Source: Rhodothermales bacterium (GTDB taxonomy: Bacteria > Bacteroidota > Rhodothermia > Rhodothermales > JABDKH01). From it: DNA of 64,000 nucleotides. Location: assembly GCA_965224105.1 (NCBI GenBank), contig CBDCYH010000002.1, positions 900,150-964,149 of the forward strand, given 5' to 3'. How positions within the stretch are numbered: position 1 is the stretch's first letter; each line of letters starts with the position of its first letter. Under the pieces are notes generated by a model, which ran no database searches, had not been told where the DNA came from, and saw only the letters and a program-made list of their open reading frames with translations. The position numbers and the translations under genes are program-made. This document shows positions 26,845 through 57,582 of the stretch, piece by piece.

Positions 26845-29800
26845 TTACTCGCTTTCTGCTGGATCCATTTCGAACAACTCTTCTTCGCCCTCGTCGGTGT
26901 CGTCATCCCCATTGCTGCTAATCTCATCAAACAGTTTTCCGAAGTCTTTGGCTTCTCCCTTCTCGCTCAGCGCGAGCTCTTCTTTCAGGTAAACTCCGGT
27001 CGGGGTTTTTTTGCGCGCCACTTGCTCGGGCGTTCCTTCACCGACAATGGTTCCACCTTTACTACCCCCCTCCGGGCCGAGGTCGATAACATGGTCGCAA
27101 ACTTTTATCACATCCATGTTGTGCTCGATTACCAGGACGGTGTTCCCCTTGTCAACCAGCGCGTGCAGGACGTTAAGTAACCTGCGCACATCTTCAAAGT
27201 GCAATCCCGTTGTGGGTTCATCCAGTATATACAGTGTGCTTCCGGTGCCCGGCCTCGAGAGCTCCTTACTAAGCTTCACCCGTTGCGCTTCGCCACCGGA
27301 AATGGTTGTTGCCTGTTGGCCAAGCCGAATGTAACCGAGACCAACAAGATCCAGTGTATGGAGTTTGCGTTGTATCCGCGGGATCTGCTCAAAAAACTGT
27401 AAAGCCTCGGACACCGTCATATTCAATACATCCGCAATCGATTTCCCTTTGAACGTCACCTCCAACGTCTCGGCGTTGTACCGCTTTCCCTTGCACGTAT
27501 CACACTCCACATAGACATCTGGCAGGAAATTCATTTCAAGCTTCGAAATGCCTGCGCCTTTGCATGTTTCGCATCTGCCACCTTTTACATTGAAGGAGAA
27601 TCTGCCTGGTTTGTAACCACGAATTTTTGATTCCGGAATCTCGGCAAACAAATCCCTGATATGGGTGAACAGCCCGGTGTACGTTGCAGGGTTGGACCGC
27701 GGGGTCCGTCCTATCGGCCGCTGATCGATTTCGATAACCTTGTCAATGTTGTCCAGGCCTTCTATCGCTGCATGCGGTAGGGGTACTTTTGATGCCTTGT
27801 GGTAGTGGCGCGCCAGGATAGGGTATAGGGTTTGGTTCACGAGCGTCGACTTGCCGGAACCGGATACTCCGGTTATTGCAACCAGTTTACCGAGCGGAAG
27901 TCGGAGGTCGACGTCTTTCAGATTGTGACCGCGAGCGCCTTTGAGCACTAGTGAAAGGCCGTTGCCTTTCCTCCTCCGCTTTGGAATGACAACCGACCTT
28001 TTCCGTGCCAGATATTGCGCGGTATAACCACGCGCTGATCCACCTCGAAGTAATTGTTTTGCCGTACCTGCAGAAATTACCTCGCCACCATATTCTCCTG
28101 CACCGGGACCGAGATCCACCACGTAGTCTGCAACCTCGATCATCTCTCGATCATGCTCAACAACGATGATGGTGTTGTCGAGGTCACGCAGTTGCATGAG
28201 CGAGTCAATGAGCTTGCTGTTGTCTCGTGCGTGCAGTCCGATGCTGGGTTCGTCCAGTACATACAGCACACCCGTCAGCTGCGTCCCGATTTGTGTAGCC
28301 AGTCGGATGCGTTGGCTCTCTCCACCTGAGAGCGTCCGGGCGGGTCTGTCTAAAGTGAGGTAGTCGATGCCGACGTTGAGAATAAAATCCAGTCGCTCCG
28401 TTATTTCCTTTACGATCGGTTTTGCAATTACGGCCTGCCGCTTTGTCAATTTCAATTCAGAAAAGAATGCGCGCAGAGAACCGAGATCCATTTGAACCAA
28501 ATCATGAATATTCTTCCCCCCCACTCGAAAAGACAGGCTCTGCTGCTTTAACCGCCCGCCGCCACATTCTGAGCACTTGTCTGAGCGCATGAAAGACTCG
28601 GCCCAACGTCGCAGGTGCGGCGAGCTCGTCTGATCCAGAACGTGCTGGATATGACCATAGACGCCAGCAAACCGGTGTTTGTATTTTACTGTGCGCGATT
28701 TGTACTTGTACTCAATGTCAAACTGCTTCTCCCCGGCACCATCAAGCAGTACCTCCAGTTGGTCGGTCGTGAACTCCGACAGGGGAGTATCGAAAGTAAA
28801 TTTGTACGCATTCGCAACAGCTCCAAGCTGGCTGAACATCCAGATGTCGCGCGGTTTTCCCAGCGACTGGATCCCACCCTCGTTGATGGTCTTCGAGTAA
28901 TCCGGAATCACCAGCTCGGGGTCTATTTCCTTCGTGTAGCCGAGGCCGTTGCAATGCGGGCACGCGCCGTACGGTGAATTGAACGAAAACGTGTTCGGCG
29001 AAGGGTCGTCATACGAGATGCCGTCTGTCGGAGAAAACAGGTGCCTACTGAACAACAAATCATCCGCGCCACCCGCTTCATCCAGAACCGCTGCGATTAC
29101 GGCCCCATTGCCAATTCCTAGTCCTACCTCGACTGACTGTGCAACCCGCGTTCGGACCCCGGGCTTAATGATGATCCGGTCGACAACCACTTCGATGTCA
29201 TGCGTCTTGTACCGATCGACTTTCAGTCCCTTTTGGATTTCGACGACTTCCCCGTCGATGCGCACCCGGTTGAATCCCTGTTTCGCAATTTGCTCGAACA
29301 GCTCGCGGTAATGACCCTTGCGTCCTTTCACGACGGGAGCAAGCAAGAGAAGTCGCGTACCATCGGGAAGGTTGCTGATGCCATCGATAATCTCATCATC
29401 AGACTGCCTGCGCATTTCTTCGCCGGAGATGTATGAGTGAGCGGTTCCAGCGCGGGCAAACAAGAGTCGAAGGAAATCATAAATCTCCGTGACTGTCCCA
29501 ACTGTCGAGCGCGGATTACGGCTTACGGTTTTCTGCTCAATCGCAATCACCGGTGAGAGGCCGTCGATGAAATCCACGTCCGGCCGCTCCATCATCCCGA
29601 GGAATTGCCGCGCGTACGCGCTCAGGCTCTCCATGTACCGGCGCTGGCCCTCGGCATAGATTGTATCGAAGGCAAGACTCGACTTACCCGATCCGGACAG
29701 TCCCGTCACAACCGTAAGCTGGTTGCGGGGGATGTCGACGTCGATGTCTTTGAGGTTGTGCTCGCGGGCGCCTCGGATTACAATCTTTTCGTCCATGCAG

Positions 29801-29850
29801 CTTGGAGGATAGACTGTGGCAAACTGAACCGCCGAATCTTCGTTCCTCAT
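26845..29850 (-). CDS. uvrA: Excinuclease ABC subunit A
   Basis: 1001 aa. Two ABC ATPase modules ([20 protein letters not shown]). Zn-finger Cys clusters. Signature LSGGE motifs. Confidence 0.97.
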
Positions 29851-29879: not shown

Positions 29880-30440
29880 CTAGCTTGCTTTTCTTTTCGG
29901 CTGACGCCGAGGGGCCGGAGCTTGATTCGGTTTCCTGTTGCGCGTCTGTCCAACTACAACGAATGGCTCCAGGTGCGGCTGCGTTGCAATCCCATCGCCA
30001 GACATCCCTGGTAAGAAAGCAGCTGGAATTTTCGGTTCGTGGACAAACTGCTTTCGTTCGTCCACCTCCTCCCATCGCTGCGGTATCCGGTACAAATATC
30101 TGCCGATACCCCACTGCACGGCCGCACGTCGCATGCTACTGCTAAGGCCACCTTTGACGGATGCGAGTTTTGTGTTGGGCGCTCCATCCCATTTTGTTAT
30201 CCACTCCCCATCAACGCAGATGGAAATCCCACACAGCACGCCGCCGCCCGGGCCGCGCTGAAATTCGTTGCGCCAGTTGGCCGGTCCGCACACCTGGTCC
30301 AGTCGATCCATGATGGCGCGGTTGGTTACGTAGGGTACCGCCAGCGCACGTTTGAGGTCGGTCGTGAATCTTACCGGCTTCCATTCAATGTCTGTGCTCG
30401 TGAAGTATTCCGAGAGGCGAGAGAGATCAGGTCGCGACAT
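29880..30440 (-). CDS. Rad52/Rad22-family single-strand annealing protein (DdrA / phage Sak-like)
   Basis: 186 aa. GPANW...C...GEW...KGGLSSSMRRAAVQWGIGRYLY matches the Rad52-family hallmark (AxSDALKRAAVxFGIGRYLY). Basic Pro-rich C-terminal tail. Confidence 0.8.
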   Translation of the reverse strand: MSRPDLSRLSEYFTSTDIEWKPVRFTTDLKRALAVPYVTNRAIMDRLDQVCGPANWRNEFQRGPGGGVLCGISICVDGEWITKWDGAPNTKLASVKGGLSSSMRRAAVQWGIGRYLYRIPQRWEEVDERKQFVHEPKIPAAFLPGMSGDGIATQPHLEPFVVVGQTRNRKPNQAPAPRRQPKRKAS

Positions 30441-42851: not shown

Positions 42852-45785
42852 GTGCTTCGTAACCGCCTCCTGCCTTTCCTTCTCGCATTATTGCTGTGCA
42901 TTCCCGTTCGCGCATGGGGACAGGGTTACTCTTCGTTCAATGGCCGGAACCATCCGGAGCTGAAATGGCAGTTTGTGGAGTCCGAACACTTTCGGATCAT
43001 GTTCCCACAACGAATTGCCGGGATCGAAAACCAGGCTGCGCAGATTGCTGAGGAGTCCTACGAGGCTCTCAGCAAAAACCTCGACGTAACATTTGATCGG
43101 AAAATCCGCATTTACCTCTCAGACGAGGACGAGATAACCAATGGATTCGCGGTTCCCATCCAAAGCGGGCACACCAACATTTGGGTGAACCTCAACGACG
43201 CGCTCAACAGCTGGACCGGCGAGGAAAAATGGATGCGCAAGGTCATCGCCCACGAGCTCGGTCACATCTTTCATTACCGCGCAATCCGCTCCAACATTCA
43301 CCCAATCGACTTCGCAATCTCAAACCCGATCCCCAGCTTTTGGGCAGAGGGACTCGCCCAGTACCAGACCGAAAAATGGGATGCATTCCGGGGCGACCGT
43401 TGGCTCAGAACCGCAGTCCTGGATGACAAACTCTCGTACAACGATGGCCGCTCATCCTGGAACGGCCGGCTCCTGTATTCCGTCGGCAACTCGCAGCTTC
43501 GATATTTTGCCGACCGCTTCGGCGACTCCACCCTCACCGCCCTGCTAAAGCACCGTGAACCGGCTCTCCTCGGCCTCGCCAAGGTGCACAACTTCGAGTC
43601 GGCCTTCGAAGCTGTGACCGACATGAAGTACCCCGAATTCTATGACGACTGGAGAAGGCACATCAATATCTACTACAATTCCATCGCGTCACAAATGGAG
43701 AATGCAGATTCTCTCCGCGCGGATGAGGTAAATCTCCCCGGCCAATATTTGTACGACGTCAAGATCTCCCCCGACTCAAGCAAGGTAGCGATTGTCGCTC
43801 TCACCAGCCTCAACCGGCCGGTGCGCAGGTTATACATTCTCGACACGCACACAGAGGAGACTATCATAGCGGCCGAAGGAAATATCCGCGTGCCCGTGGC
43901 GTGGAGTCCCGACAGCAGGCGGGTGTTTTATGCGAGCCAGGTGCGAAGTCAGCATGGTTCGTTGTTAAACGACGTGTTTGTCTATGATGTGCCAACGAAG
44001 ACCGACCTACGCCTAACCACCGGCAGGCGCGCGAATTTCCCCACGGCAAGCCCCGATGGCCTGCAGATTGCATACGCCGCAACCAATGGTCCAACCACAA
44101 ACATCTACACCGCGCAACTCTCCAACCTGCAAGAGAAACAGGTGACACGCTACAGCGGGGACGTACAGATAGGCCATCTCGCATGGAGCCCTAACGGCTC
44201 AAGCATAGCATACTCTCTTTTTGATCAGGCCGGAGAGCGCACCATTCAGACGGTCGATGTAAGGTCGCTGCAAACAAGAGCGATCACCGGTGGGCAACAC
44301 GATGACCGGCAGCCGACCTGGTCACCGTCTGGAGACCGCATCGCTTTCACGTCATATCGGGACGGCGTTCCAAACGTGTTCACCATGCGGGTGGACACGG
44401 TGGATTCGGTCAAGCGAGTTACCAATCTGGTCACTGGTGCGACTATTCACGACTGGTTGCCCGGCGGAGTGGAGCACACTCGCGGACTGCTCGCCGTTAT
44501 CGTTGGTGAAAGTAAAACATCCGATACTGCTTACCTGGTGGACGCGGCGCGCGTGCCATACACCAGAGAGATCCAACTGCCAGCCCAGTATGACAGATGG
44601 ACACGGGTGGCTCCGGAGCAAACGATCCCGTCGTTCGTGCATCGACCAGATGTCAAGATATCTGCTCCCAAACGGTATCGATCTGTAAGCAACATTTCGC
44701 ATGTCTTTTCGCTACCGTTCCCTTACTACGGAACGGCTGAAAATTGGGGGATCGGCGGAGTAACTTCCTGGACTGAGCCCTTATCACGTCACTCGATTTT
44801 TGCTGGAGGACTGTTTAGCATACCGAAGCCAGCGAACTCGACCCTGTACATCGCTTACGTTAACAACACACTTGCGCCTTCTATACAAACCGAGGTTAGC
44901 TACATCCCGGGAGCGGCGCGACCCTACGAAAACACCATCCTGGAAGAAAGAGCTTCTCAGGCTGAGGTAAAAATTCGCTGGCCTATCAGTTCGGGAATCA
45001 GCCCCTACCGGCAAACCTATTTTTCTGTACGCTCCCGATTCCTGAATGTTGACATTCGCAATCCGGAGGACTTCATTGATCAAGATTCCGGACTGCCGGT
45101 CCCGGAGTCGGGAGAGCAGTATGACCTGCGCGTTTCGTTCACCCGAAAGTTTCAGCGTCCGTACCGCTTCAATGTTGTGCATCCTCTTGACGGCTCCGGC
45201 ATCCGGGTTCGACTGTCGGGAGGATTTTTGCGTACTGATGAGAATCGAAGATTCGTCCAGCTGGATCTGAGCGCATACCGCATCTTCCCGGCGCTGGGCC
45301 TAAACCGGATTTTGGTTTATTCGCGTATGCAGACGCAGAGGGGTCGTGGTCTAGCCCAGAATTTCCAGGGCCTGTCGCGATACGATGCCCTGCAAATACA
45401 CTCGCCGAATTTTGTTCAGGCAGAATTTTCCAATTCGGAACGCGTTCGTGGCTACCGGTCCTTCGCTTTGGGCCAAACGGTTGTATTTGGTTCGTTGGAA
45501 TACCGGATTCCAGTGGTTCCAAGCCTCAGAACAACACTTTTGGGCTCGGTATCCCTTGGCAGCACGAGCCTGGCTCTTTTCGCCGATGGAGGCCTGGTTT
45601 TTGATGATGTAGATTACGGAGACGCGATCAAGAGACTGGGCGTGGGAATGGAACTCAAGAATGAACTCCGACTGGGGAGCAACATCCGCTTTATGCACGC
45701 CGTTGGTATTGCCGGACCCGCGAACGACCTCGGCAGAGATACGTACGATCTCTACTACCGGATTCGCACTACCCTCCCGTTCTAA
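42852..45785 (+). CDS. Chimeric outer-membrane protein: signal peptide + HExxH zinc-metallopeptidase-like domain + PD40/TolB beta-propeller repeats + C-terminal Omp85 (surface antigen D15) beta-barrel
   Basis: 977 aa. IAHELGHIFHY. Repeated WSPDS / SPDGLQIAYAA / WSPNGSSIAYS / WSPSGDRIAFTS blades. C-terminal VRGY...SLEYRIP...LFADGG...TLPF resembles the end of the BamA barrel, with a terminal Phe. Confidence 0.7.
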   Translation: MLRNRLLPFLLALLLCIPVRAWGQGYSSFNGRNHPELKWQFVESEHFRIMFPQRIAGIENQAAQIAEESYEALSKNLDVTFDRKIRIYLSDEDEITNGFAVPIQSGHTNIWVNLNDALNSWTGEEKWMRKVIAHELGHIFHYRAIRSNIHPIDFAISNPIPSFWAEGLAQYQTEKWDAFRGDRWLRTAVLDDKLSYNDGRSSWNGRLLYSVGNSQLRYFADRFGDSTLTALLKHREPALLGLAKVHNFESAFEAVTDMKYPEFYDDWRRHINIYYNSIASQMENADSLRADEVNLPGQYLYDVKISPDSSKVAIVALTSLNRPVRRLYILDTHTEETIIAAEGNIRVPVAWSPDSRRVFYASQVRSQHGSLLNDVFVYDVPTKTDLRLTTGRRANFPTASPDGLQIAYAATNGPTTNIYTAQLSNLQEKQVTRYSGDVQIGHLAWSPNGSSIAYSLFDQAGERTIQTVDVRSLQTRAITGGQHDDRQPTWSPSGDRIAFTSYRDGVPNVFTMRVDTVDSVKRVTNLVTGATIHDWLPGGVEHTRGLLAVIVGESKTSDTAYLVDAARVPYTREIQLPAQYDRWTRVAPEQTIPSFVHRPDVKISAPKRYRSVSNISHVFSLPFPYYGTAENWGIGGVTSWTEPLSRHSIFAGGLFSIPKPANSTLYIAYVNNTLAPSIQTEVSYIPGAARPYENTILEERASQAEVKIRWPISSGISPYRQTYFSVRSRFLNVDIRNPEDFIDQDSGLPVPESGEQYDLRVSFTRKFQRPYRFNVVHPLDGSGIRVRLSGGFLRTDENRRFVQLDLSAYRIFPALGLNRILVYSRMQTQRGRGLAQNFQGLSRYDALQIHSPNFVQAEFSNSERVRGYRSFALGQTVVFGSLEYRIPVVPSLRTTLLGSVSLGSTSLALFADGGLVFDDVDYGDAIKRLGVGMELKNELRLGSNIRFMHAVGIAGPANDLGRDTYDLYYRIRTTLPF

Positions 45786-45816
45786 AATCGATTGCCATCA
45801 GACGTGGCATTCTGGC

Positions 45817-48800
45817 ATGGCCGAAGTAACATCCGATAACAAAATAGTCGAACAGTCCGATACGGACGCTCGAGCATCCGCCACGAACGGATCGGCGTCT
45901 CCCCAACAAACGCTCCTCGCAATTTCCACGGAGATGTCGGATGAGGTTGCGCGCTTTCGCAGTGTGTGGAGCGAGGAGGTCGACACAAAAATTCGCACAC
46001 CTCTGAAAGAGCTTTTTCAAAATGCTCTGCTGGCGCACGCTGATCACCGCGCTGAACTGTATAACACCACATCAGACAATTTCACCATTGCGGCGCTGGA
46101 CAACTATATCACCGGGACTCGCGCAGATGTGTTGCAGCCAATATTCTCCTTCTTCTCTGAAAAGAATTGCGCGGATGTGGTGGGAGATGCGTTTGCCTCC
46201 GGCTTGGAGGTAGTTAAAACTCTAGAGGGGCGATATCCATCTGAAATTGTCGTGGACGAGACGCCGGATATTTTTCGCCCCGCACCTTCGGACAGCTGGT
46301 CCACATTCTTTAGAAAACGAGCGGCACGGTTAAAGCGGATGTTTGGTGGCAGCAAGCGTCGCGTCCGCCGCGTACCGATCTTCGCGATTACGCAATACCA
46401 CCTCCATCGACGATTACCCATTATCGCCTCACCCCTCCACGATGATTTGCAAGAGTCGCTGGCAAATATCGTTGGCCTTGTCGAATCAACGGCGTCGCAC
46501 TGGATCCACGACACACTCGCAAGCACCCGACAGGTGCGCAGGCGAATGTTGTCGCAAGAGTCAGCGGACAACCCTGAGGGAACGGAGGAGCAGGAGGAGC
46601 CCAACCACCCCGCTGCCGATGTTTTCGAATCAGGCGAGGCATTTCAAAACAGATTGCTGCAGCTGGTCGATCTGTGTGAGCAGATAAGAGCTGAATCGGA
46701 TAAGGTCACTGTTAAATTCGACATGGCGCAAAGCCTGTTTGATACCGATCTGCGAGATGGCGGCACGTTCCTGCTTCCCTTGTCGGATCGCCGCCTCCGC
46801 AAGGGTGAGTATCAGGCTGGTGAGATTCTTAATTCGAAACGCGAAACCTGGCACGCTTGGCATTCGGCAGCGCAAGATCGATTCAAACTCCTGGATCGCC
46901 TTCTCGCTCTGCGCGCCACAGTGTACCAGCTGGCCAGGCGTGTCCTGGATAGAATCGACCGGACGTCGCTCCAACCTGCGCACCGCGCTTTTGCCAAGAT
47001 CCGTGAGGGAATTGTCGCATCGAAAACGGAGATCGAATCAGCTAAAGAAACCGCGACGATTGAATCCCTCCAGGAACTCATCACCGGGCAACACAAAAAG
47101 TTGACACGACTATTTGATCGGGCAATTGCGAGCCTGCCGGGTTTGGTATCGCGAGAAAATGCACTAACCGAACCTGGAAAAGAAGAGTGGAAAGCGTTTT
47201 CTCGTTTTGTTGACACCTTGCCCGAAAAGTTGGTCGTCCACCCGCTCAAGGAGGATCATCAAATGGTTGACCCGCTCTTATGGGAGCGGGAGATAGAATT
47301 CCAGCATGGCGTACGGGGTGTTGTCTTTGATTCGATTGCCGCGCCGCTAAGGCAGAGCGCTTCGAAGTTGCAGCAGGGCCTGGTTCGGGCGTGGACTGAA
47401 TTCGAACAGGTTCGACACATCTCGCTGTTTAATCTTGAAGCTGCAGCAGCGGAGCTGTCGGGCGAGAATATCGATGAGGAGGTGGAGGCCGGAGAATCCG
47501 AAGAACCCGTTGACAACTTTACCGCGGGTTACGAGCTGGCGGTTGTCGGGGCCGATCGAGCAGTGGCCGCGCTCGACGAGCTGGTACAAAAACTGGAAAA
47601 CCCGTGGCGTGAGTTTTCGAACACGGTGGATAAGGAGTTCTTCGAGGAGTGGAACGCGATTCACATCCGCGTGCGCACTCTGGACCAGTCATCTGGCCGG
47701 ATGGCCGACCTCAACACCAGGATTGATCGACTCCGTGAACGTTCTCTTGCAAACCTTCGGGCGGGCTGGGCCGAGACCAAACTCAGGTGGGCCGTTACGG
47801 CACGAGCGGTTACCAGGAGAATCAATCGGCTCATCCGCAAGGGTCGAACCGCGGTGGGTGCCGTTAAGGACGACCAGGCTTTGCGTGCCCAAACGGTCGA
47901 GGCCATTTCCAGCGTCGTTGAGTTTAAAAGCACGCTACCGCTCGTTTACAGACGATTGTTTTCTTTTGATGCGCTTGAAGATTCTTCCTTGCTGGAAGGC
48001 AGGAGCGAAGACATTGACTGGGCCCGCAATCACTACGAGCGCTGGCAAACAGGTCACCACGTTGGATTGGCGGTTGTTGTCGGGATGCCAGGTTCGGGAC
48101 GGACAAGTTTTCTGAACGCACTTGCGTCAACTACCTTTGAGGATGTCGTTGTTCACAAACTTACACTGAGCCATCGGATTGAGGACGAGGCGACACTGAT
48201 TCGCGCCCTGACCGAAACGGCAGAGCTATCGGGCGACATTTCTACTTTTGCCGAGCTTGAAAACGCGCTGCAAACTCTTGCTGGTGACTTGCGGCCGATA
48301 TATCTCATCGACAATGTCGAGCATCTGATGCTGAACTGCGCCCGCGGTCGGGAGCTCATTGAGGAGTTTCTGCTCTTCTTGTCCCGATCAGACACGCGTA
48401 TCTGTTGGATCATGTCCATCGCAGCGCCTGCCTGGAAGTATCTACGTAAGACTGCACCGGCTGCTGCTGGGTTTGTCGTCTCCCGACATCTCGATGATCT
48501 TGGGAAGTTTGACTACGAATCCCTGATAATGAACCGGCACAGACGAAGTGGCATGCCCGTTCATTTTCTGGAGCCGGCAACGTCTACGGCCCTTGCCCGC
48601 CAACGCCTACGCAAAGCCTCTACGGACGAGGAAAAGCAGGAGATCCTGCGCGAGAATTATTTCGACCGGTTAAGCAAACTGTGTGGGCAAAATGTAATGC
48701 TCGGCTTATTCTACTGGCTGAGGTCAGCGGATTTTGAAGCGGACGCGGGCGTACTTACCGTCAAGCCGATAGTACCCTTATACTTCGATTTCCTGAACAA

Positions 48801-49080
48801 GATGGAGCAGCCGTTGGCCTTCACGCTTCGCGCTATGCTTGTTCACAACACGTTGAACGTCGAGGAGCACAACAAAATTTTCCGGTTGGGTTCGGACGAG
48901 ACCACGTTTATCCTGGACACGCTACTGAATGGAGGGTTGGTGCACGCATCTGATATTGCGTTGGATCGGACCAAAGCCACCGACAGAAATTTCTTTGATC
49001 CCACGAAGCGCTACCGCATTCACCCACTGGTGATCCACAACATCGTGCAGTTCTTGAGGGGGCGGAATATTCTGCACTAG
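45817..49080 (+). CDS. Large (about 1087 aa) P-loop NTPase of unknown function: long alpha-helical N-terminal region plus an AAA_16/STAND-like ATPase module
   Basis: Walker A VVVGMPGSGRTS. Walker B-like IYLIDNVEH about 95 aa later. Start taken at the ATG at 45817 to avoid overlapping the upstream gene. Confidence 0.6.
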   Translation: MAEVTSDNKIVEQSDTDARASATNGSASPQQTLLAISTEMSDEVARFRSVWSEEVDTKIRTPLKELFQNALLAHADHRAELYNTTSDNFTIAALDNYITGTRADVLQPIFSFFSEKNCADVVGDAFASGLEVVKTLEGRYPSEIVVDETPDIFRPAPSDSWSTFFRKRAARLKRMFGGSKRRVRRVPIFAITQYHLHRRLPIIASPLHDDLQESLANIVGLVESTASHWIHDTLASTRQVRRRMLSQESADNPEGTEEQEEPNHPAADVFESGEAFQNRLLQLVDLCEQIRAESDKVTVKFDMAQSLFDTDLRDGGTFLLPLSDRRLRKGEYQAGEILNSKRETWHAWHSAAQDRFKLLDRLLALRATVYQLARRVLDRIDRTSLQPAHRAFAKIREGIVASKTEIESAKETATIESLQELITGQHKKLTRLFDRAIASLPGLVSRENALTEPGKEEWKAFSRFVDTLPEKLVVHPLKEDHQMVDPLLWEREIEFQHGVRGVVFDSIAAPLRQSASKLQQGLVRAWTEFEQVRHISLFNLEAAAAELSGENIDEEVEAGESEEPVDNFTAGYELAVVGADRAVAALDELVQKLENPWREFSNTVDKEFFEEWNAIHIRVRTLDQSSGRMADLNTRIDRLRERSLANLRAGWAETKLRWAVTARAVTRRINRLIRKGRTAVGAVKDDQALRAQTVEAISSVVEFKSTLPLVYRRLFSFDALEDSSLLEGRSEDIDWARNHYERWQTGHHVGLAVVVGMPGSGRTSFLNALASTTFEDVVVHKLTLSHRIEDEATLIRALTETAELSGDISTFAELENALQTLAGDLRPIYLIDNVEHLMLNCARGRELIEEFLLFLSRSDTRICWIMSIAAPAWKYLRKTAPAAAGFVVSRHLDDLGKFDYESLIMNRHRRSGMPVHFLEPATSTALARQRLRKASTDEEKQEILRENYFDRLSKLCGQNVMLGLFYWLRSADFEADAGVLTVKPIVPLYFDFLNKMEQPLAFTLRAMLVHNTLNVEEHNKIFRLGSDETTFILDTLLNGGLVHASDIALDRTKATDRNFFDPTKRYRIHPLVIHNIVQFLRGRNILH

Positions 49081-49651: not shown

Positions 49652-50491
49652 TCAGCCGATATGCATCTGTAGCTCTTCGCGACGGTGCTTCTGGCGGAGT
49701 TTGCGTAGCGCCTTTTCCTTTATCTGCCGTACGCGTTCGCGTGTGAGGCCGAACCGCTGTCCTATTTCCTCCAGCGTAAGAGGATGCTCACGGCCGATTC
49801 CAAAGTACAGCCGTGTGATCTCCGCTTCCCGGGGATGCAGCAGGCTTAGTGCACGCTCAATGTCGATCTTTAGCGATTCATCCATGAGCGTCTCATCCGG
49901 CGAAAGATCTTCGTCGTTGGGAAGCACATCGAGAAGGCTGTTGTCGTCATCTTCGTTGAACGGAGCGTCCATCGAAAGGTGACGGCCGGTGTGCTGCATT
50001 GCCTCTCTCACCTTGCCCACGTCTACTTCGAGCTCCTTGGCGAGCTCCTCAATGTTGGGCTGCCTTTCGTGGACCTGAGACAACTTCGCACTCGTCTTCC
50101 TGATTTTCGAAATGGTCCCGATTCTGTTAAGCGGCAACCGCACGACGCGGCTCTGCTCGGCGAGGGCCTGCAGAATCGCCTGACGAATCCACCAGACCGC
50201 GTACGAGATGAACTTGAAACCTCTCGTCTCATCAAAACGCTGGGCGGCTTTAATAAGACCGTAGTTTCCTTCATTGATCAGGTCGGCCAGAGTTAAACCC
50301 TGACCCTGATACTTCTTCGCAACCGATACCACAAATCGCAGGTTTGCGCGTGTGAGCCGGTGAAGGGCATCTTGATCGTTCTGTTTTATTCTGCGCGCAA
50401 GCTCAACTTCCTCAGCAGGTGTGAGGAGGGGGATCTGACCAATCTCCTGGAGATACTGGTCAAGCATACGTTGCTGGCGAGGGACGTACAT
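49652..50491 (-). CDS. rpoD: Primary sigma-70 factor (short Bacteroidota-type RpoD/SigA; regions 1.2-4)
   Basis: 279 aa. Regions 2.4 and 4.2 are highly conserved. Confidence 0.92.
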
Positions 50492-50989: not shown

Positions 50990-51886
50990 ATGACAACAAC
51001 CATTCTAAACATAGGCGCACTCACCATCGAGCCGCCTCTGGTCCGAGAGCGCCCGGCCTATACCATGGGCATCCTGAATGTGACCCCGGATTCCTTCTCC
51101 GATGGCGGCCTGTACGAATCCGTTGGCGCGGCCGTTGATCGCGTCGGCGTGATGATCGAGCAGGGCGCCGACTGCATCGACATTGGCGGAGCCTCCTCCA
51201 GACCCAGGGGATCAGCGTACGGCAAAGGCGCAGCTGTCCTCTCGGCGGAAGAAGAAGCAGAACGGGTAGTCCCCAGCCTGGTGGCTATTCGCTCTACATT
51301 CCCAACCGTACCCATTTCCGTTGATACCTACCATGCTTTGGTCGCTCGGGAAGCTATCGCAGCGGGCGCCGACGCCATCAACGACATCACGGCCCTCCAA
51401 TTCGATCCAGACATGATCGATGTTGTTGCAAAATCATCCGTTCCGGTCATCCTGATGCACTCGGTGGGGTCCCCGGGAGCCATGCCGCACGAACATCTCG
51501 AGCAAGACGTCGAACATGTTGTTGCTGATTCTCTGTCCGCATCCATCAGCCAGGCTCAAGCGGCGGGCATCTCCGACATCATCGTCGATCCGGGTTTTGG
51601 GTTTGGCAAAACCGAGCGTGGCAACTTTCGACTCTTGAGGAATCTGGATTACCTCCGAAAACTTAATAGACCGATTCTTGTTGGACTATCTAGGAAAACA
51701 ATGATCGGCCAAGGCATCGGTAAACAGAGCGAGCATCCGAAGCATCGGGTCGTTGGCTCCGTCGCCGCGGCCGTACTCGCAGTTACCAACGGCGCATCAA
51801 TTGTCCGCACGCACGATGTCGCCGAAACATCCGAGGCATTACAGATTGTATACGCAACGCAGCTTGAACAGCATGAACAGGAATAG
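50990..51886 (+). CDS. folP: Dihydropteroate synthase
   Basis: 298 aa. GILNVTPDSFSDGG and pterin-binding motifs. Confidence 0.93.
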   Translation: MTTTILNIGALTIEPPLVRERPAYTMGILNVTPDSFSDGGLYESVGAAVDRVGVMIEQGADCIDIGGASSRPRGSAYGKGAAVLSAEEEAERVVPSLVAIRSTFPTVPISVDTYHALVAREAIAAGADAINDITALQFDPDMIDVVAKSSVPVILMHSVGSPGAMPHEHLEQDVEHVVADSLSASISQAQAAGISDIIVDPGFGFGKTERGNFRLLRNLDYLRKLNRPILVGLSRKTMIGQGIGKQSEHPKHRVVGSVAAAVLAVTNGASIVRTHDVAETSEALQIVYATQLEQHEQE

Positions 51887-51910
51887 GACTGAGAGACCAC
51901 CGCGTTTTGC

Positions 51911-52750
51911 ATGACCATCTTTCAATGGGTCATACCGATACGACTTCAGGATATCGCCGAGATACTCATCTTCGCGTACATCCTTTACAAGTTGTACACG
52001 TTCATGCGGGGCACCATCGCCGTACAAATCTTTCTCGGTCTCATGGCGCTCCTTGTTGCACAGCTCGTCGTATCCGCCCTCGACATGACGATGCTTGGTT
52101 CGCTGTTCGGCATCATTGGAGAAGTCTTCGTCCTCGCCATCATCATTCTTTTTCAGCCGGAAATTAGACGACTGCTACTTGTGTTGGGGCAGAACCCTCT
52201 CATACGAAGGTTTGTCCCACCCAGCGCTCATTCGCAACTCATCGACAATGTGGTTGAAGCAGTCGACGAGCTGAGCGCGAACCGCACCGGCGGACTAATT
52301 GCATTCGAACGTGGAATCGGTCTTCGCAACTACATCGAAACAGGCGTATCCATACAGGCGAAAGTCACCAAGGAGCTCCTGATTGCAATGTTCTATTCGC
52401 AAAGCCCTCTACATGACGGAGCGGTGATTATCCGAAACAAAAGAATTGCTTCAGCCAGAAGTATCCTCCCCGTCTCTGCCAACATGAAGCTCAGTCCGCA
52501 CCTTGGACTCCGGCATCGAAGCGCGGTAGGTCTCTCGGAAGTAACCGATGCCTTCGTGATCACTATATCAGAAGAAACCGGCCAGATCTCCGTGGCCGAC
52601 GCCGGAAATTTGCGAACCGGATTGTCTCTACCACAACTGCATGACCTCCTGTCCGACGCGCTAAGTCCTAACGAAGAGCAGCACGTCGATGAAAATAGTT
52701 CAATGGAACTCCCTATCTTGGAATCTCAGGCAGCCATCTCCGAAGCTTGA
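51911..52750 (+). CDS. cdaA: Diadenylate cyclase CdaA/DacA (c-di-AMP synthase)
   Basis: 279 aa. Three N-terminal TM helices. DisA_N domain with the DGA (LHDGAVII) and RHR motifs. Confidence 0.9.
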   Translation: MTIFQWVIPIRLQDIAEILIFAYILYKLYTFMRGTIAVQIFLGLMALLVAQLVVSALDMTMLGSLFGIIGEVFVLAIIILFQPEIRRLLLVLGQNPLIRRFVPPSAHSQLIDNVVEAVDELSANRTGGLIAFERGIGLRNYIETGVSIQAKVTKELLIAMFYSQSPLHDGAVIIRNKRIASARSILPVSANMKLSPHLGLRHRSAVGLSEVTDAFVITISEETGQISVADAGNLRTGLSLPQLHDLLSDALSPNEEQHVDENSSMELPILESQAAISEA

Positions 52751-52762
52751 CGTCCGAGACAA

Positions 52763-53416
52763 TTGAGCGATTGGAAATTTCAAAAAAGACGAAGCAGGTT
52801 AGTGCGCCAACTTCGGAGCAAAGGTATCTCCAACGAGCGGGTCCTCGCGGCTGTTGAGTCCGTCCCACGCCATCGCTTCGTCGATAACGGACTTGTCGCA
52901 CGCGCATATCAGGATGAAGCGCTTCCCATAGGTTTGGGCCAGACCATCTCTCAACCTTTTACCGTCGCCTATCAATCCAGCCTGTTGCAGATTGAACCTG
53001 GCGACACCGTGTTGGAAATTGGCACCGGCAGCGGCTATCAGGCCGCAATCCTTGCCGAGATGGGCGCCACCGTATACTCGATCGAGCGACTTGAACCGCT
53101 CCTGCGTCGAACCAAGGAGCTTTTGGCGGAGCTCGGATACCGGGTAATTTCGAAACTCGCAGACGGAGGAGAGGGGTGGCCCGCGTTTGCTCCGTTCGAT
53201 GCGATCATCGTCACCGCCGCTGCCATCTCGATACCCGAACCACTGCTCGAACAACTTCGCGAACCTGACGAAGACCGGACAGGTGGTGTGCTGGTAATAC
53301 CTGTTGGAGGACAGGAAGGCCAGACCATGTGGCGAATAACCTGCACCGGAAGCGGCACGTATGAGCGCGAAGAGTTGCACGGATTTCGCTTCGTGCCACT
53401 GGTTACTGAAAGCTGA
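52763..53416 (+). CDS. pcm: Protein-L-isoaspartate O-methyltransferase
   Basis: 217 aa. GQTISQP and VLEIGTGSGYQAA SAM motifs. Confidence 0.92.
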   Translation: MSDWKFQKRRSRLVRQLRSKGISNERVLAAVESVPRHRFVDNGLVARAYQDEALPIGLGQTISQPFTVAYQSSLLQIEPGDTVLEIGTGSGYQAAILAEMGATVYSIERLEPLLRRTKELLAELGYRVISKLADGGEGWPAFAPFDAIIVTAAAISIPEPLLEQLREPDEDRTGGVLVIPVGGQEGQTMWRITCTGSGTYEREELHGFRFVPLVTES

Positions 53417-54042
53417 TGTCCCTCGACGTCTGGGCTGCCTTAGTCGCGACCCTGCTCATCTTGATGCTTTCGCCCGGGCCCAGTCATCTGTTGATGCTCT
53501 CCAACTCGCTTACCCACGGATTCAGACCATCACTGGCAACCGCACTGGGAGACCTGACCGCCAACACGTTGCAGATGCTCGCCGCTGGCCTGGGTGTCGC
53601 CGCAGTCTTGCAAGCGATGCCGCGAACGTTTATCGCAATGCAGATTGTAGGAGTTTTCTACTTGCTCTTTCTCGGTGTTCGACAGCTTGCGCCACGCAAC
53701 CCACCAAACACATCAGCCGAAACGGCTAAACAATCCGGCCGCTCCCTGTTCGCCCAGGGCTTTTTGAACTCTTCTCTCAACCCACGTGTGATCATTTTTT
53801 TTGCAGCCCTTTTTCCGCAGTTCATCTCTGCAGGTGAACGTCTGGCCCCACAGTTAACCATACTCATGGTTACATTCTTAACGATCGACGCTCTGTTCCT
53901 CACTGCCTACGGAATTGCAGCAGAAAAACTGCGTAGTCGTTTTGCAGGTGGTATGCGAAAACTCCAGTTGCTGGGAGCAGGTGCGCTAATTGTAGCCGCG
54001 CTGCTACTCGCCGCAAAACTGGCAGTTAGTTTTGGGAATTAG
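53416..54042 (+). CDS. LysE/RhtB-family amino-acid exporter
   Basis: 208 aa. Six TM segments. LSPGP motif near the N-terminus. TGATG overlap with the pcm stop. Confidence 0.85.
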   Translation: MSLDVWAALVATLLILMLSPGPSHLLMLSNSLTHGFRPSLATALGDLTANTLQMLAAGLGVAAVLQAMPRTFIAMQIVGVFYLLFLGVRQLAPRNPPNTSAETAKQSGRSLFAQGFLNSSLNPRVIIFFAALFPQFISAGERLAPQLTILMVTFLTIDALFLTAYGIAAEKLRSRFAGGMRKLQLLGAGALIVAALLLAAKLAVSFGN

Positions 54043-54335
54043 TCCTCGTCGCTTGTGGACCAACTCCACTGCTCCGTGGTCAGTTCATCCACCACCCCAA
54101 CGACCGTCGCGTCGGTTGGCGTGAGATTTGGTTTGAATGGAATTGCCGCCTCGGCGGAGGTGGCATAGATAACCACATCACCTTCGCCACTATCCACTGT
54201 GTCGAGAGCGACAATGGGAGTCCCCAACTTTTTCCCCGAAAACGTTAGTGGCTGTATGATGAGATGTCTCCGGCCCTGCAGCGTCCCGTATTTCCGCGTG
54301 GCCCAGATGTTACCCACAACCTTGGCTAGCTTCAT
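54039..54335 (-). CDS. BMC vertex (pentamer) protein, EutN/CcmL/PduN family, paralog 1
   Basis: 98 aa. MKLAKVVGNIWATRK...G..L.IIQPL...G..IVALDTVDSGEGDVVIYATSAEAA...TDATVVGVVDEL matches the EutN/CcmL pattern. ATGA start/stop overlap with paralog 2. Confidence 0.8.
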   Translation of the reverse strand: MKLAKVVGNIWATRKYGTLQGRRHLIIQPLTFSGKKLGTPIVALDTVDSGEGDVVIYATSAEAAIPFKPNLTPTDATVVGVVDELTTEQWSWSTSDED

Positions 54336-54631
54336 CCGTCGTACTCCGCGAGCAGTTCTTCCATGCGGGAGTAGTCAAGCTTGTCGACGATAGCCATTAT
54401 CACCGCATCGATGGGTCGATTCCGGGTCATCTCCGTTTGCCGAGCGCTTGATCCCTGCGCGACAAGCACCGTTTCCCCTTCCCCTGCGCCAACGCTGTCC
54501 ACCGCGACGACAAATTTGGACTTTGGGGACTCGTCGAGATTAATCTCCCTTACGATCTGGAGCTTCATGCCCACCAGTTGCTCGTCCTTCCTGGTGGCCC
54601 AGACCGTGCCGATTACCTTACCCAATATCAT
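54332..54631 (-). CDS. BMC vertex (pentamer) protein, EutN/CcmL/PduN family, paralog 2
   Basis: 99 aa. MILGKVIGTVWATRKDEQLVGMKLQIVREI...VVAVDSVGAGEGETVLVAQGSSARQ...IDAVIMAIVDKL is a textbook EutN/CcmL signature. AGGA-like RBS. Confidence 0.85.
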   Translation of the reverse strand: MILGKVIGTVWATRKDEQLVGMKLQIVREINLDESPKSKFVVAVDSVGAGEGETVLVAQGSSARQTEMTRNRPIDAVIMAIVDKLDYSRMEELLAEYDG

Positions 54632-54688
54632 GCGTCCTTAAACTCGTGCGGTGTGAATTGATCACTCAGAATATACGCACGGCAACCA

Positions 54689-55858
54689 TCACAAACGGTG
54701 GTGAAACGACGTGCCCTCGCCTACGACAGGTATTCCGAAATAATCACAAACGGTTGCGGCGTGATCCGCGAACGATTGGCGGGTCCCAATATCACGGCCC
54801 TCCATGCCTGCCGCGAAATACAATACCGGTGCGTATTCACGCGTGTGATCCGTTCCGGGAAATGTCGGATCGTTACCATGGTCCGCAGTAATGCAGAGTG
54901 CCGAACCTTCCGGAAGCGCCTGCCGAATTTTCGGCAACGAAGCATCGAAATCCTCCAGTGCCTGGGCGAAACCTTGTGGATTGTTTCGGTGACCAAACTC
55001 CTGATCGAAGTCGACCAAATTTACCCAGATGAAGCAATCTCCATGTGCCGAATTGATTACCTCCAAGGTCCTGTCAATCCCGTCGGCATTGTCTAATGTC
55101 TTGACTGATTCATCAAATCCAACAGCTCCGAACAAATCTGATACCTTCCCCACGGAAATCGTGTGCACGCCGTGATCCTGAAGGCGCGATTGCAACACTT
55201 CGGAGGGCGGTAGATAAGAGAAATCTTTTCTTTCTGATGATACACGAGTGAAGGCCCCGTCCTTCTTGACAAAAGGACGCGCGATTACTCTGCCCACGGC
55301 ATGATCATCGACGCATATCTCGTCACGCGCTATGCGGCACCATTCGTAGAGTGTTTCTAATGGAACCGTCTCTTTATCAGCGGCAATTTGGAAAACGCTA
55401 TCCGCCGAGGTGTACACGATGGGCCAGCCAGTTTCTATATGCCGGTCGCCCAGTTTCTGTATGATGTCCGTTCCGGATGCCGCGACGTTTCCAAGCACGC
55501 CCTCACTTCCAATAGCCTGGCTGAATCTTGATAGTACGTCTTCGGGGAATCCGTTTGGGTATGTCGGAAATGGTCGAGACAATACTATCCCGGCCAGTTC
55601 CCAATGTCCCGTTGTGCTGTCTTTGCCGCTTGAGCGTTCTATCATCCGTCCGAAGGCGGCGGAGGGTGCCGAAGACGGTGGAGTGCCATTCAATGGCAGG
55701 ATGTTTCCAAGACCAGCCCGTGAAAGATTCGGCAAATGGGGCCTGCACCGGTCGCACACATGTGAGAGTGTGTTGCTTCCTTCATCGCCGTAGGAGACCG
55801 CATCAGGGAGAAATCCAACACCGACCCCGTCCAACACAATCGTGACGAAAAGAGCCAC
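54689..55858 (-). CDS. deoB: Phosphopentomutase
   Basis: 389 aa, GTG start. DxxG metal site (VLDGVG). SGKDSTTGHWE. IVYTSADSVFQIA. VDFD and ADHGNDPT...GTDHTRE motifs. Confidence 0.9.
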   Translation of the reverse strand: MALFVTIVLDGVGVGFLPDAVSYGDEGSNTLSHVCDRCRPHLPNLSRAGLGNILPLNGTPPSSAPSAAFGRMIERSSGKDSTTGHWELAGIVLSRPFPTYPNGFPEDVLSRFSQAIGSEGVLGNVAASGTDIIQKLGDRHIETGWPIVYTSADSVFQIAADKETVPLETLYEWCRIARDEICVDDHAVGRVIARPFVKKDGAFTRVSSERKDFSYLPPSEVLQSRLQDHGVHTISVGKVSDLFGAVGFDESVKTLDNADGIDRTLEVINSAHGDCFIWVNLVDFDQEFGHRNNPQGFAQALEDFDASLPKIRQALPEGSALCITADHGNDPTFPGTDHTREYAPVLYFAAGMEGRDIGTRQSFADHAATVCDYFGIPVVGEGTSFHHRL

Positions 55859-55864
55859 TCGCGT

Positions 55865-57103
55865 CTATTCCAGGATAGTGCAAGATCCGGTCTCAAATGC
55901 CTCGCGCAGTGCGGCTGTGGCATCGGCCCTGAATTCCTGGGGAGTTTTGTGACGATCTCGAAGCATCGCAACCCCTACGCTGATCCCGTCAAGAAAATCG
56001 TCTTCATCTTGGGGAGTCAGCACTGACTGGATGTTCAGGACCCACTCCTCTGCATCGTGCACATCACCCGGAATAAAAATACCAAACGTCAACTCTCCGA
56101 ATTGCTCGATGCGCCCGTGGTTGGTGTGGCGATACAGTCGGTCTCGTACCTCGTTCTCGCAGCGTTTCACTTCTTCGGGACCTTTCTTGGCGATCGCCTC
56201 AGCGTTGTTCAGATAAACAAGCGCGAGTGCGAGAGGTCTCTGTGTCCTGCGGGCAATAGTAATTTCGTCACCAATAATTTCCCGCCGCGGCTTTATCACA
56301 ATACTGTCTCCAGCGAGACCGTCCTGCTCAGCCTTGTGACCGAGGTATGTCGAAACGTAGTACACGGCCTGGCGCAGCATCTTCAGCTTGTAATCTGAAT
56401 CGAAGACACCCCTGTGCATGGAATCGGCGACCAGCAGATAGCGCTGCTTCTTCACGTCCACCCGTGCAACAAGCATCTCTCTTATAGCGAGACGTTCGCG
56501 ATAATATCTAACGGACTCACTGGGGTTTCTGCCGACTTCGACAATGGCGACGTTGTCCTTCGCTTCCGCAGGAAAAATGGATGACTTGGTCATGAACCTG
56601 CCTGCCGTCCGCGCATAGCTTGAACGAGACACCGTGCCCATGATACGATAGCGCGTGGGCGATCCATCCTGCAATAGAAGACAGACTGTATGCGCTTCGA
56701 GAACCGCTCGAATAGACGAAAGGCATGGAATAAGAAACGCCTCGTCAAACGGATCTCCGACTGCTTCAACCGCGAGCGTGCGAGCTGATTCCCTGGCGCG
56801 TATCGAGATAACGTCACGCCGCGAGGGCTCTGCCGCATCGGTTTCAACATCTACCGCCCGTTTCGACGATGCCCCTTCGTCTGCAGCAAGCTGGAAAGAA
56901 TCATCGTCATCCTCTCCGCCGCTTTCTTCCGAGATCGGCAGGGTTTCGTCCCGGTCCGTAGTGGCTGAAGCTTTTTCTTTCGGCCTGATCTCCAGGATGC
57001 CCAGCGAACCAAGGTCGGGACTGGGAGGGGCCTGGAGAGGAAATTCTTCAGACGCGTTGAGTTCGCGCGCCCGGGCAATTAGTGACTGGAGGAAGCCTGC
57101 CAA
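55865..57103 (-). CDS. GAF-domain protein with a degenerate (GGDEF-to-FGELTF) diguanylate-cyclase-like domain and an acidic disordered N-terminus
   Basis: 412 aa. GAF-like core at about residues 120-230. The C-terminus aligns to GGDEF (ALALVYLNN..., RIEQFGELTFGIFIPG, ISVGVAML, ADATAALREAFETG) but lacks the GG(D/E)EF catalytic residues. 6-nt gap to deoB. Confidence 0.62.
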   Translation of the reverse strand: MAGFLQSLIARARELNASEEFPLQAPPSPDLGSLGILEIRPKEKASATTDRDETLPISEESGGEDDDDSFQLAADEGASSKRAVDVETDAAEPSRRDVISIRARESARTLAVEAVGDPFDEAFLIPCLSSIRAVLEAHTVCLLLQDGSPTRYRIMGTVSRSSYARTAGRFMTKSSIFPAEAKDNVAIVEVGRNPSESVRYYRERLAIREMLVARVDVKKQRYLLVADSMHRGVFDSDYKLKMLRQAVYYVSTYLGHKAEQDGLAGDSIVIKPRREIIGDEITIARRTQRPLALALVYLNNAEAIAKKGPEEVKRCENEVRDRLYRHTNHGRIEQFGELTFGIFIPGDVHDAEEWVLNIQSVLTPQDEDDFLDGISVGVAMLRDRHKTPQEFRADATAALREAFETGSCTILE

Positions 57104-57582
57104 TGGGAAACAAAGTTATTTAGTCGTAGCACGTTGCGAAGAGTGAGACCCTCACGGCGTCATGAGAATCAACAGGATACTCCCCAGCAACACGAATCTA
57201 GGCCTGTAATCGGGCCAAGTCAACAAATCAACTGCCCTGAGGTGCATTTGGGTTCCATTTAAGCCGATTATTCTCAAAGTCGGGGTCAGCCTGAACCGGT
57301 CCCGCAATGAGACTTCGCAGGAAACCTTTTCTTGTGGGCGCACCCCGACAGGCCCAAACGCCTCATAATGAACGATTTGGATTTAGGCACGGCATTTGGA
57401 GTGACTCCCCGTACCGGTTGGGCACCTATCGTTGTGTTGCCAGGTGATTCTCCCCGGCCGGTTTACAAAATGGTTTGCTTGAGCGACAGCTCATTGTTCG
57501 AGGGTCCCGGATACGGTTGTTGTGATCGAATCCGGGATTTTCTCTTTTTGGTCGTTAATCATTTGTACGTGAAGCTCGCCAA

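Follow-up and report, generated by a model that had tools for sequence, protein, structure and literature searches.

Two adjacent vertex genes beside deoB in a Rhodothermales genome: a probable satellite locus of a FRAG1-type bacterial microcompartment

In this study, a 64,000-nucleotide stretch of a Rhodothermales bacterium genome (GenBank assembly GCA_965224105.1, contig CBDCYH010000002.1, positions 900,150 to 964,149 of the forward strand; hereafter the window) was analyzed for two adjacent genes encoding paralogous vertex proteins (BMC-P) of bacterial microcompartments (BMCs), which lie downstream of deoB, the gene for phosphopentomutase, and of a gene for a GAF/degenerate GGDEF protein. 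The two genes, paralogues A and B, are probably a satellite vertex locus of a FRAG1-type fragmented BMC, in which the shell genes would be scattered over several chromosomal sites, clustered neither with each other nor with cargo enzymes. The arrangement is no oddity of the source genome, being common to 80 related loci, and it adds one more case to a catalogued class and is no new kind of system. Under this interpretation, A would be the canonical pentamer capping the shell vertices, and B a fixed, specialized second member of the pentamer family, perhaps forming an alternative or mixed vertex. Hexamer (BMC-H) genes and a third BMC-P gene would be expected elsewhere in the source genome, and the pair is probably co-transcribed with deoB.

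Identity of the two vertex paralogues

Both genes belong to the EutN/CcmL family and lie in tandem on the minus strand, exactly where a sequence-only reading of the window, made without database searches, had placed them. Paralogue A (54332..54631, 99 aa) and paralogue B (54039..54335, 98 aa) match PF03319 (EutN_CcmL) along the entire profile (positions 1-83 of 83), with E values of 4.5e-32 (110.9 bits) and 1.2e-23 (83.8 bits), respectively, both above the gathering score of 25 bits. The best match of A in the PDB is 5V74, the BMC-P of the Haliangium ochraceum shell (E 2.3e-25), which B also matches (E 2.7e-10). The alignment of A with 5V74 spans residues 1-86 without a gap at ~60% identity, and the GAGxGE, GSSARQ and DAxIxAIVD segments are intact, suggesting that A may assemble as a vertex pentamer. 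Against the NCBIfam equivalogs for CcmL, EutN and CsoS4, both proteins score far under the cut-offs, and neither is therefore a carboxysome or Eut orthologue.

Paralogue B is a diverged but conserved second vertex-family protein. It differs from A at the segments conserved in A, and its family has a signature of its own, consisting of WATRKY, VQP, DTxGAGPGE, YxTxSEAVIP and PVDAxIVGIVD. The mean pairwise identity is 57% within the B family and 76% within the A family. The signature shared by the B orthologues, together with their 57% identity, indicates that B is a stably kept, specialized paralogue and no decaying copy. The window B reads DSGEGD at the GAGPGE loop, unlike its own family consensus.

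The junctions described in the sequence-only reading were found by direct inspection of the sequence. The stop codon of A and the start codon of B overlap by 4 bp (ATGA), the stop codon of deoB is separated from the start codon of A by 57 bp, and the stop codon of the GAF/GGDEF-like gene (open reading frame (ORF) 4) lies 6 bp from the GTG start codon of deoB.

Conservation of the pair and of the surrounding gene block

When one genome per GTDB species was scanned, relatives of A were found in at least 256 species-level genomes, and the best 80 of these loci, with up to 10 kb on each side, were used as the comparative set. They come from Rhodothermales, Rubricoccaceae (two loci), Melioribacteraceae, Ignavibacteria and Chlorobiota metagenome-assembled genomes (MAGs). 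As in the window, exactly two adjacent BMC-P genes are present in all 80 loci, and both ORFs are intact in 81 of the 81 sequences. The deoB-eutN-eutN order, which the sequence-only reading had singled out for neighborhood comparison, is largely kept: deoB lies on the same strand within 2.5 kb upstream of the pair in 53 of the 58 informative loci (those with at least 3.5 kb of upstream sequence), farther away in two and out of view in three. In a few rearranged loci, the A-B pair stays joined and deoB is gone from the neighborhood. Across the 80 loci, A has a median identity of 74% to its window copy; the corresponding values are 64% (sigA-like primary sigma factor), 51% (DeoB) and 47% (B). In the Ignavibacteria-type loci alone, the medians are 73% for A and 63% for the primary sigma factor.

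The pair is embedded in a block of shared gene order. In Ignavibacteria, one strand carries rpsD, rpoA, rplQ, engB, a gene for a GAF-GAF-degenerate GGDEF protein, deoB, an optional small ORF with a PIN-domain gene, A, B, sigA, NlpC/P60 and fumC, of which rpsD, rpoA, rplQ and fumC were identified by reading of their sequences and the others are backed by Pfam. In 47 of the 49 Ignavibacteria-type loci, sigA lies downstream of B at a distance of 31-49 bp (overall range 7-128 bp). In Rhodothermales, the order is GAF-degenerate GGDEF gene, deoB, A and B, followed by pcm, cdaA and folP on the opposite strand and by sigA 4-5 kb downstream. The window sigA-like gene (49652..50491, minus strand), whose product is 97% identical to SigA of Rhodothermales MAGs, is a downstream anchor of the syntenic block and no functional part of the BMC module. 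The Rhodothermales order was reproduced with independent gene calls and precomputed Pfam assignments on three metagenome contigs (L081-L083, 8784-10632), in which deoB and A, as well as A and B, overlap by 4 bp each, tighter than the 57-bp deoB-A gap of the window and implying translational coupling of all three genes. The GAF-degenerate GGDEF gene, deoB, A, B and sigA are best read as an ancient, vertically inherited block of Rhodothermia and Ignavibacteria.

Several other genes accompany this block. In the window, folP, cdaA (for a DAC-domain c-di-AMP synthase) and pcm occupy 50990-53416 on the plus strand and form the kept block between the BMC-P pair and sigA in Rhodothermales; they are accompanied by a LysE exporter gene, the 3' end of which overlaps the convergent 3' end of B by 4 bp. 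In about half of the Ignavibacteria-type loci (L002, L005, L008-L010, L015, L017, L028-L030, L036, L044, L049, L057, L062-L065, L068, L071, L073, L076 and L080), a PIN-domain gene (~129 aa; PF01850, E 6e-6) lies between deoB and A, often following a ~98-aa ORF without a Pfam match, and this gene pair resembles a toxin-antitoxin cassette. A co-directional 4HBT hot-dog thioesterase gene directly precedes A in Rubricoccaceae-type and some other Rhodothermales loci (all plus strand: L004, 7590-7997; L014, 1663-2070; L025, 8176-8577; L033, 7264-7671; L040, 2569-3168); the L014 copy matches PF03061 with an E value of 4e-16, and the other four were assigned by their similarity to it. An acyl-CoA thioesterase encoded beside the vertex pair may bear on a metabolosome or be incidental. 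Another insertion between deoB and A is an opposite-strand, type IX secretion system (T9SS)-sorted gene.

Shell and cargo genes near the pair

No further shell gene accompanies the pair. A tblastn search of the 64-kb window with four BMC-H proteins returned nothing, and a five-sequence BMC-H hidden Markov model (HMM), run with filters off against all stop-to-stop ORFs of at least 40 aa in the window, detected no BMC-H or BMC-T at E<=1, in agreement with the sequence-only reading. The BMC-H query sequences used in these searches were entered by hand. Likewise, no BMC-H or BMC-T was detected by HMM (E<=1) within 10 kb of the pair in the 80 loci and the window.

Cargo enzymes are equally absent from view. 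Pfam scans of ~40 window ORFs revealed no deoxyribose-phosphate aldolase (DERA), RpiB, aldehyde dehydrogenase (AldDH) or phosphotransacylase (PTAC), the third of which the sequence-only reading had also failed to see, and showed housekeeping genes. The thymidine/pyrimidine-nucleoside phosphorylase gene that it had noted elsewhere in the window is located at 6922-8259. An inspection of two loci in which the pair is not beside deoB (L021 and L022) revealed no BMC-type enzymes.

The upstream genes deoB and ORF4

The gene upstream of the pair (54689..55858, minus strand) is deoB, its product scoring 475 bits against the NCBIfam equivalog NF003766 (cut-off 256) and 395 bits against TIGR01696. Residues 4-387 of the protein correspond to profile positions 6-393 of 396, and this end-to-end match leaves no terminal extension able to act as an encapsulation peptide.

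ORF4 (55865..57103, minus strand; 412 aa) has no Pfam or NCBIfam match, even at E<=1, and Pfam finds neither GAF nor GGDEF in any of the 15 members of its Rhodothermales family (the window protein and 14 orthologues, searched one by one). Like the other three gene identities of the sequence-only reading, the call of a GAF plus inactive GGDEF protein was nevertheless right, as seen from profile-profile comparison, an AlphaFold model and Foldseek. The Ignavibacteria gene just upstream of deoB encodes a ~625-aa GAF-GAF-GGDEF protein (GAF_2, E 1.2e-20; GGDEF, E 7.4e-12), and hhalign relates the ORF4 family to this family at 85% overall (E 6e-6). By domain, the C-terminal domain of ORF4 matches GGDEF at 94.8% (E 5e-8) and the N-terminal domain matches the first GAF at 79.6%, all cross-comparisons being below 1%. 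The AlphaFold (AF2) model, built from an alignment of 56 database homologues, has a predicted local distance difference test (pLDDT) score of 81.5, exceeding 90 in both domains. Its best Foldseek match in the PDB is 4ZMU, the GAF-GGDEF diguanylate cyclase Dcsbis (E 2e-10), and it superposes on isolated GGDEF domains at ~3 Å with target TM-scores of 0.65-0.76.

The GG(D/E)EF motif of active diguanylate cyclases is replaced by GELTF in the window protein and by GE(L/R)(T/L)(F/Y) in both families. The motif spacing of PleD served as the comparison. No RxxD I-site precedes the degenerate motif, as judged from the alignments of both families and by direct reading, and the suggestion that this protein is a cyclic-dinucleotide receptor is therefore without sequence support.

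The window ORF4 also lacks the N-terminal membrane helix of its orthologues. These open with a transmembrane helix (MLRVLFIILAVVS...), and the window copy begins past that point. Just upstream, at 57104-57343 on the minus strand, the ORF4 frame holds a hydrophobic remnant (...FVLLGSILLILMTP) followed by two in-frame stop codons, which points to either a lost or split membrane anchor or a sequencing error.

A satellite locus of a fragmented microcompartment

In fragmented (FRAG) BMCs, as described in the catalog text of Sutter et al. (2021, Nat Commun 12:3809, PMC8217296), the shell genes occupy up to six genomic sites, mostly far from recognizable enzymes. Its Supplementary Data 2 lists 57 FRAG1 entries, annotated "shell protein only". 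These come mainly from Ignavibacteria and also from Kryptonia, Bacteroidetes, Chlorobi and Rhodothermaeota. According to the text, FRAG1 has three BMC-P genes, one each from the green, grey and orange clades, and two BMC-H genes, of which one has its C terminus extended at length, often together with PduS/T; no encapsulation peptides were detected and no function is assigned (PMC8217296). In the BMC-P tree, a 99-aa protein of Rubricoccus marinus and a 98-aa Ignavibacterial protein are FRAG1 satellites that lie close together in one green-clade group (PMC8217296). No later paper on FRAG1 or on what the BMC-P triplet does was found.

The locus agrees with this type in several respects. The window and the 80 loci contain no BMC-H or BMC-T, and the neighbors of the pair are housekeeping or unrelated genes. 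The taxa (Rhodothermales, Rubricoccaceae, Melioribacteraceae, Ignavibacteria and Chlorobiota relatives) are those of FRAG1. Only two BMC-P genes, compared with the triplet of FRAG1, are present per locus; A, by similarity and catalog text, resembles both the 98-99-aa 'viridian3' (green) FRAG1 members and the main HO (Haliangium ochraceum-type) pentamer. The length, taxa and high conservation of A fit the catalogued green-clade FRAG1 satellites of Rubricoccus marinus and Ignavibacteria. Also in favor, the text of Axen et al. (2014, PMC4207490) gives Melioribacter roseus seven BMC-P genes spread over five loci, with four classed as satellite or satellite-like.

Several points weigh against this assignment. 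The assignment depends on BMC-H genes and a third BMC-P gene that would have to lie outside the locus views, elsewhere in the source genome and in the genomes of the 80 loci, and the clade placing of A and B (green, grey or orange) relies on similarity and catalog text. Relatives of the pair occur in at least 256 species-level genomes, compared with 57 FRAG1 entries in the 2021 catalog, so some carriers could be without hexamers. A search seeded with H. ochraceum BMC-H returned only near-identical Haliangium-like sequences. The 229-aa extended FRAG1 BMC-H was also sought among 50%-identity representatives; none of the extended matches inspected showed an extension resembling that of FRAG1, and most had the Arg/Pro-rich tails typical of frameshift or read-through artefacts.

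As one of its two alternatives, the sequence-only reading had offered a remnant or satellite of a sugar-phosphate-utilizing (SPU) BMC. The satellite part is the better supported, with FRAG1 as the fitting type and not a compact SPU locus. The remnant idea is contradicted: A is under strong purifying selection, with a median identity of 74% across two classes, above the 64% of sigA.

It is unlikely that the pair instead provides extra vertices for a conventional metabolosome, as a satellite of a compact enzyme-bearing locus of SPU, PVM-like or MIC type elsewhere in a genome without a FRAG1 organelle. In favor of this reading, M. roseus has an MIC4/PVM-like main locus besides its satellites (PMC8217296, PMC4207490), and HO-type BMCs hold two BMC-P genes on a satellite locus (PMC8217296). 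In addition, the SPU signature aldolase acts on (deoxy)ribose-5-phosphate, which DeoB produces. However, the catalog text places the 98-99-aa BMC-P proteins of this clade from Rubricoccus and Ignavibacteria in FRAG1 satellites, a type without a main locus, and the pair is vertically kept across two classes, whereas the main-locus types are patchy.

A second alternative, raised in the sequence-only reading and regarded here as improbable, is that the A and B pentamer proteins work without any hexamer shell, for example as a small oligomeric scaffold, or in regulation, together with DeoB or the GAF-degenerate GGDEF protein in nucleoside/pentose-phosphate metabolism. In its favor are the lack of BMC-H and BMC-T within 10 kb in 81 sequences, the setting of the pair amid housekeeping genes, with rpoA-rplQ-engB to one side and sigA to the other, unlike that of substrate-induced BMC operons, the tight linkage to deoB with translational coupling in some loci, and the apparent excess of carriers over catalogued FRAG1 genomes. 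Moreover, Sutter et al. remark in the catalog text that having so many BMC-P paralogues hints at some further role (PMC8217296). Against it, A retains the motifs of a pentamer from a solved shell, its conservation exceeds that of sigA, in keeping with constraint by several structural partners, the catalogued FRAG1 genomes of the same taxa do have BMC-H according to the catalog text, M. roseus has a main BMC locus as well, and DeoB shows no extension or other sign of a dedicated partner.

That the pair is a decaying, functionless remnant of a lost microcompartment is highly implausible: the absence of shell and cargo genes nearby and the DSGEGD loop of the window B would be compatible with decay, but both ORFs are intact in all 81 sequences, the A and B families each keep their own motif at mean pairwise identities of 76% and 57%, and the 4-bp overlap is preserved.

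The link to deoB and its significance

With the pair taken as a FRAG1 satellite locus, a further question is whether its association with the upstream genes goes beyond inherited gene order. We suggest only tentatively that the GAF-degenerate GGDEF gene, deoB, A and B constitute a functional unit. In this scheme, the FRAG1 organelle would handle nucleoside-derived (deoxy)ribose-phosphate as an SPU-like compartment, with DeoB as a cytosolic feeder and the degenerate GGDEF sensor as a regulator, and the vertex pair would be made constitutively alongside the sigA-proximal housekeeping genes. In a stronger version, the A/B pentamers would have a role beyond shell capping. The product of DeoB is the substrate of the SPU enzymes, SPU enzymes are encoded beside BMC-P genes in FRAG3, FRAG5 and FRAG8 according to the catalog text (PMC8217296), and the deoB-A junction is conserved, which together make a reasonable lead to an SPU-like function of FRAG1. 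Caution is called for by the whole block, including sigA, being an ancient synteny beside core housekeeping genes, in which a functional tie between sigA and deoB is unlikely, by the tolerance of insertions between deoB and A (the PIN cassette, the T9SS-sorted gene and the 4HBT thioesterase), and by the rearranged loci, which keep A-B and drop deoB.

The conserved link of the pair to deoB and the GAF-degenerate GGDEF gene seems to be undescribed, as the searchable text (figures apart) of the two BMC catalogs (PMC8217296 and PMC4207490) makes no mention of phosphopentomutase, deoB, GGDEF or nucleosides. FRAG-type BMCs are widespread in environmental bacteria of the Bacteroidota group and in candidate phyla, and their function and cargo are unassigned. 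The A/B pair bears on the open question of what multiple BMC-P paralogues are for, and its linkage to a phosphopentomutase and a GAF-GGDEF-like sensor across two classes offers a testable lead to deoxyribose/ribose phosphate catabolism. Melioribacter roseus, Rubricoccus marinus and possibly Rhodothermus are cultured organisms suited to testing it.

Other genes in the window

Two other genes were also recorded. The gene at 29880-30440 on the minus strand, directly downstream of a 1001-aa ORF (26845-29850) that resembles uvrA on inspection, encodes a protein of 186 aa in which a Rad52/Rad22-family domain was recognized (PF04098, E 1.7e-13); such domains are met more often in phages and eukaryotes than on the chromosomes of bacteria. 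On the plus strand, a gene for a 1139-aa protein (45661-49080), the sole Pfam match of which is a weak AAA_22 at residues 801-921, overlaps the end of a gene for a 977-aa PD40/DPPIV-like beta-propeller protein (42852-45785) by ~125 bp.

Comparison with known systems

Among the known systems, FRAG1 is matched in its taxa, in the separation of the shell genes from other shell genes and from recognizable BMC enzymes, and in 98-99-aa BMC-P proteins of the same closely knit clade. The locus differs from the FRAG1 description in showing only two of the three BMC-P genes expected, and in that the pair nearly always lies beside deoB, sometimes overlapping it, and the GAF-GGDEF-like gene.

The HO satellite similarly holds two BMC-P genes together, away from the hexamer genes, and A is closest to the HO pentamer 5V74. 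In HO, however, the satellite pair accompanies a class II aldolase and complements a main locus containing BMC-H, BMC-T plus AldDH, whereas the neighbors here are deoB and the degenerate GGDEF gene, with no known main locus.

SPU metabolosomes share with this locus a link through metabolism, in that (deoxy)ribose-5-phosphate, the product of DeoB, is the substrate of their signature enzymes DERA and RpiB. In SPU loci, DERA, RpiB and AldDH cluster with the shell genes; in contrast, DERA (PF01791), RpiB (PF02502), AldDH, PTAC and hexamers are absent from the scanned window ORFs and from the neighbors of the pair in the related loci.

CsoS4A and CsoS4B are, like A and B, two BMC-P paralogues that are always adjacent. 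They belong to a complete carboxysome operon and make up a clade of their own, unlike the present pair, for which the carboxysome equivalogs score far below their cut-offs.

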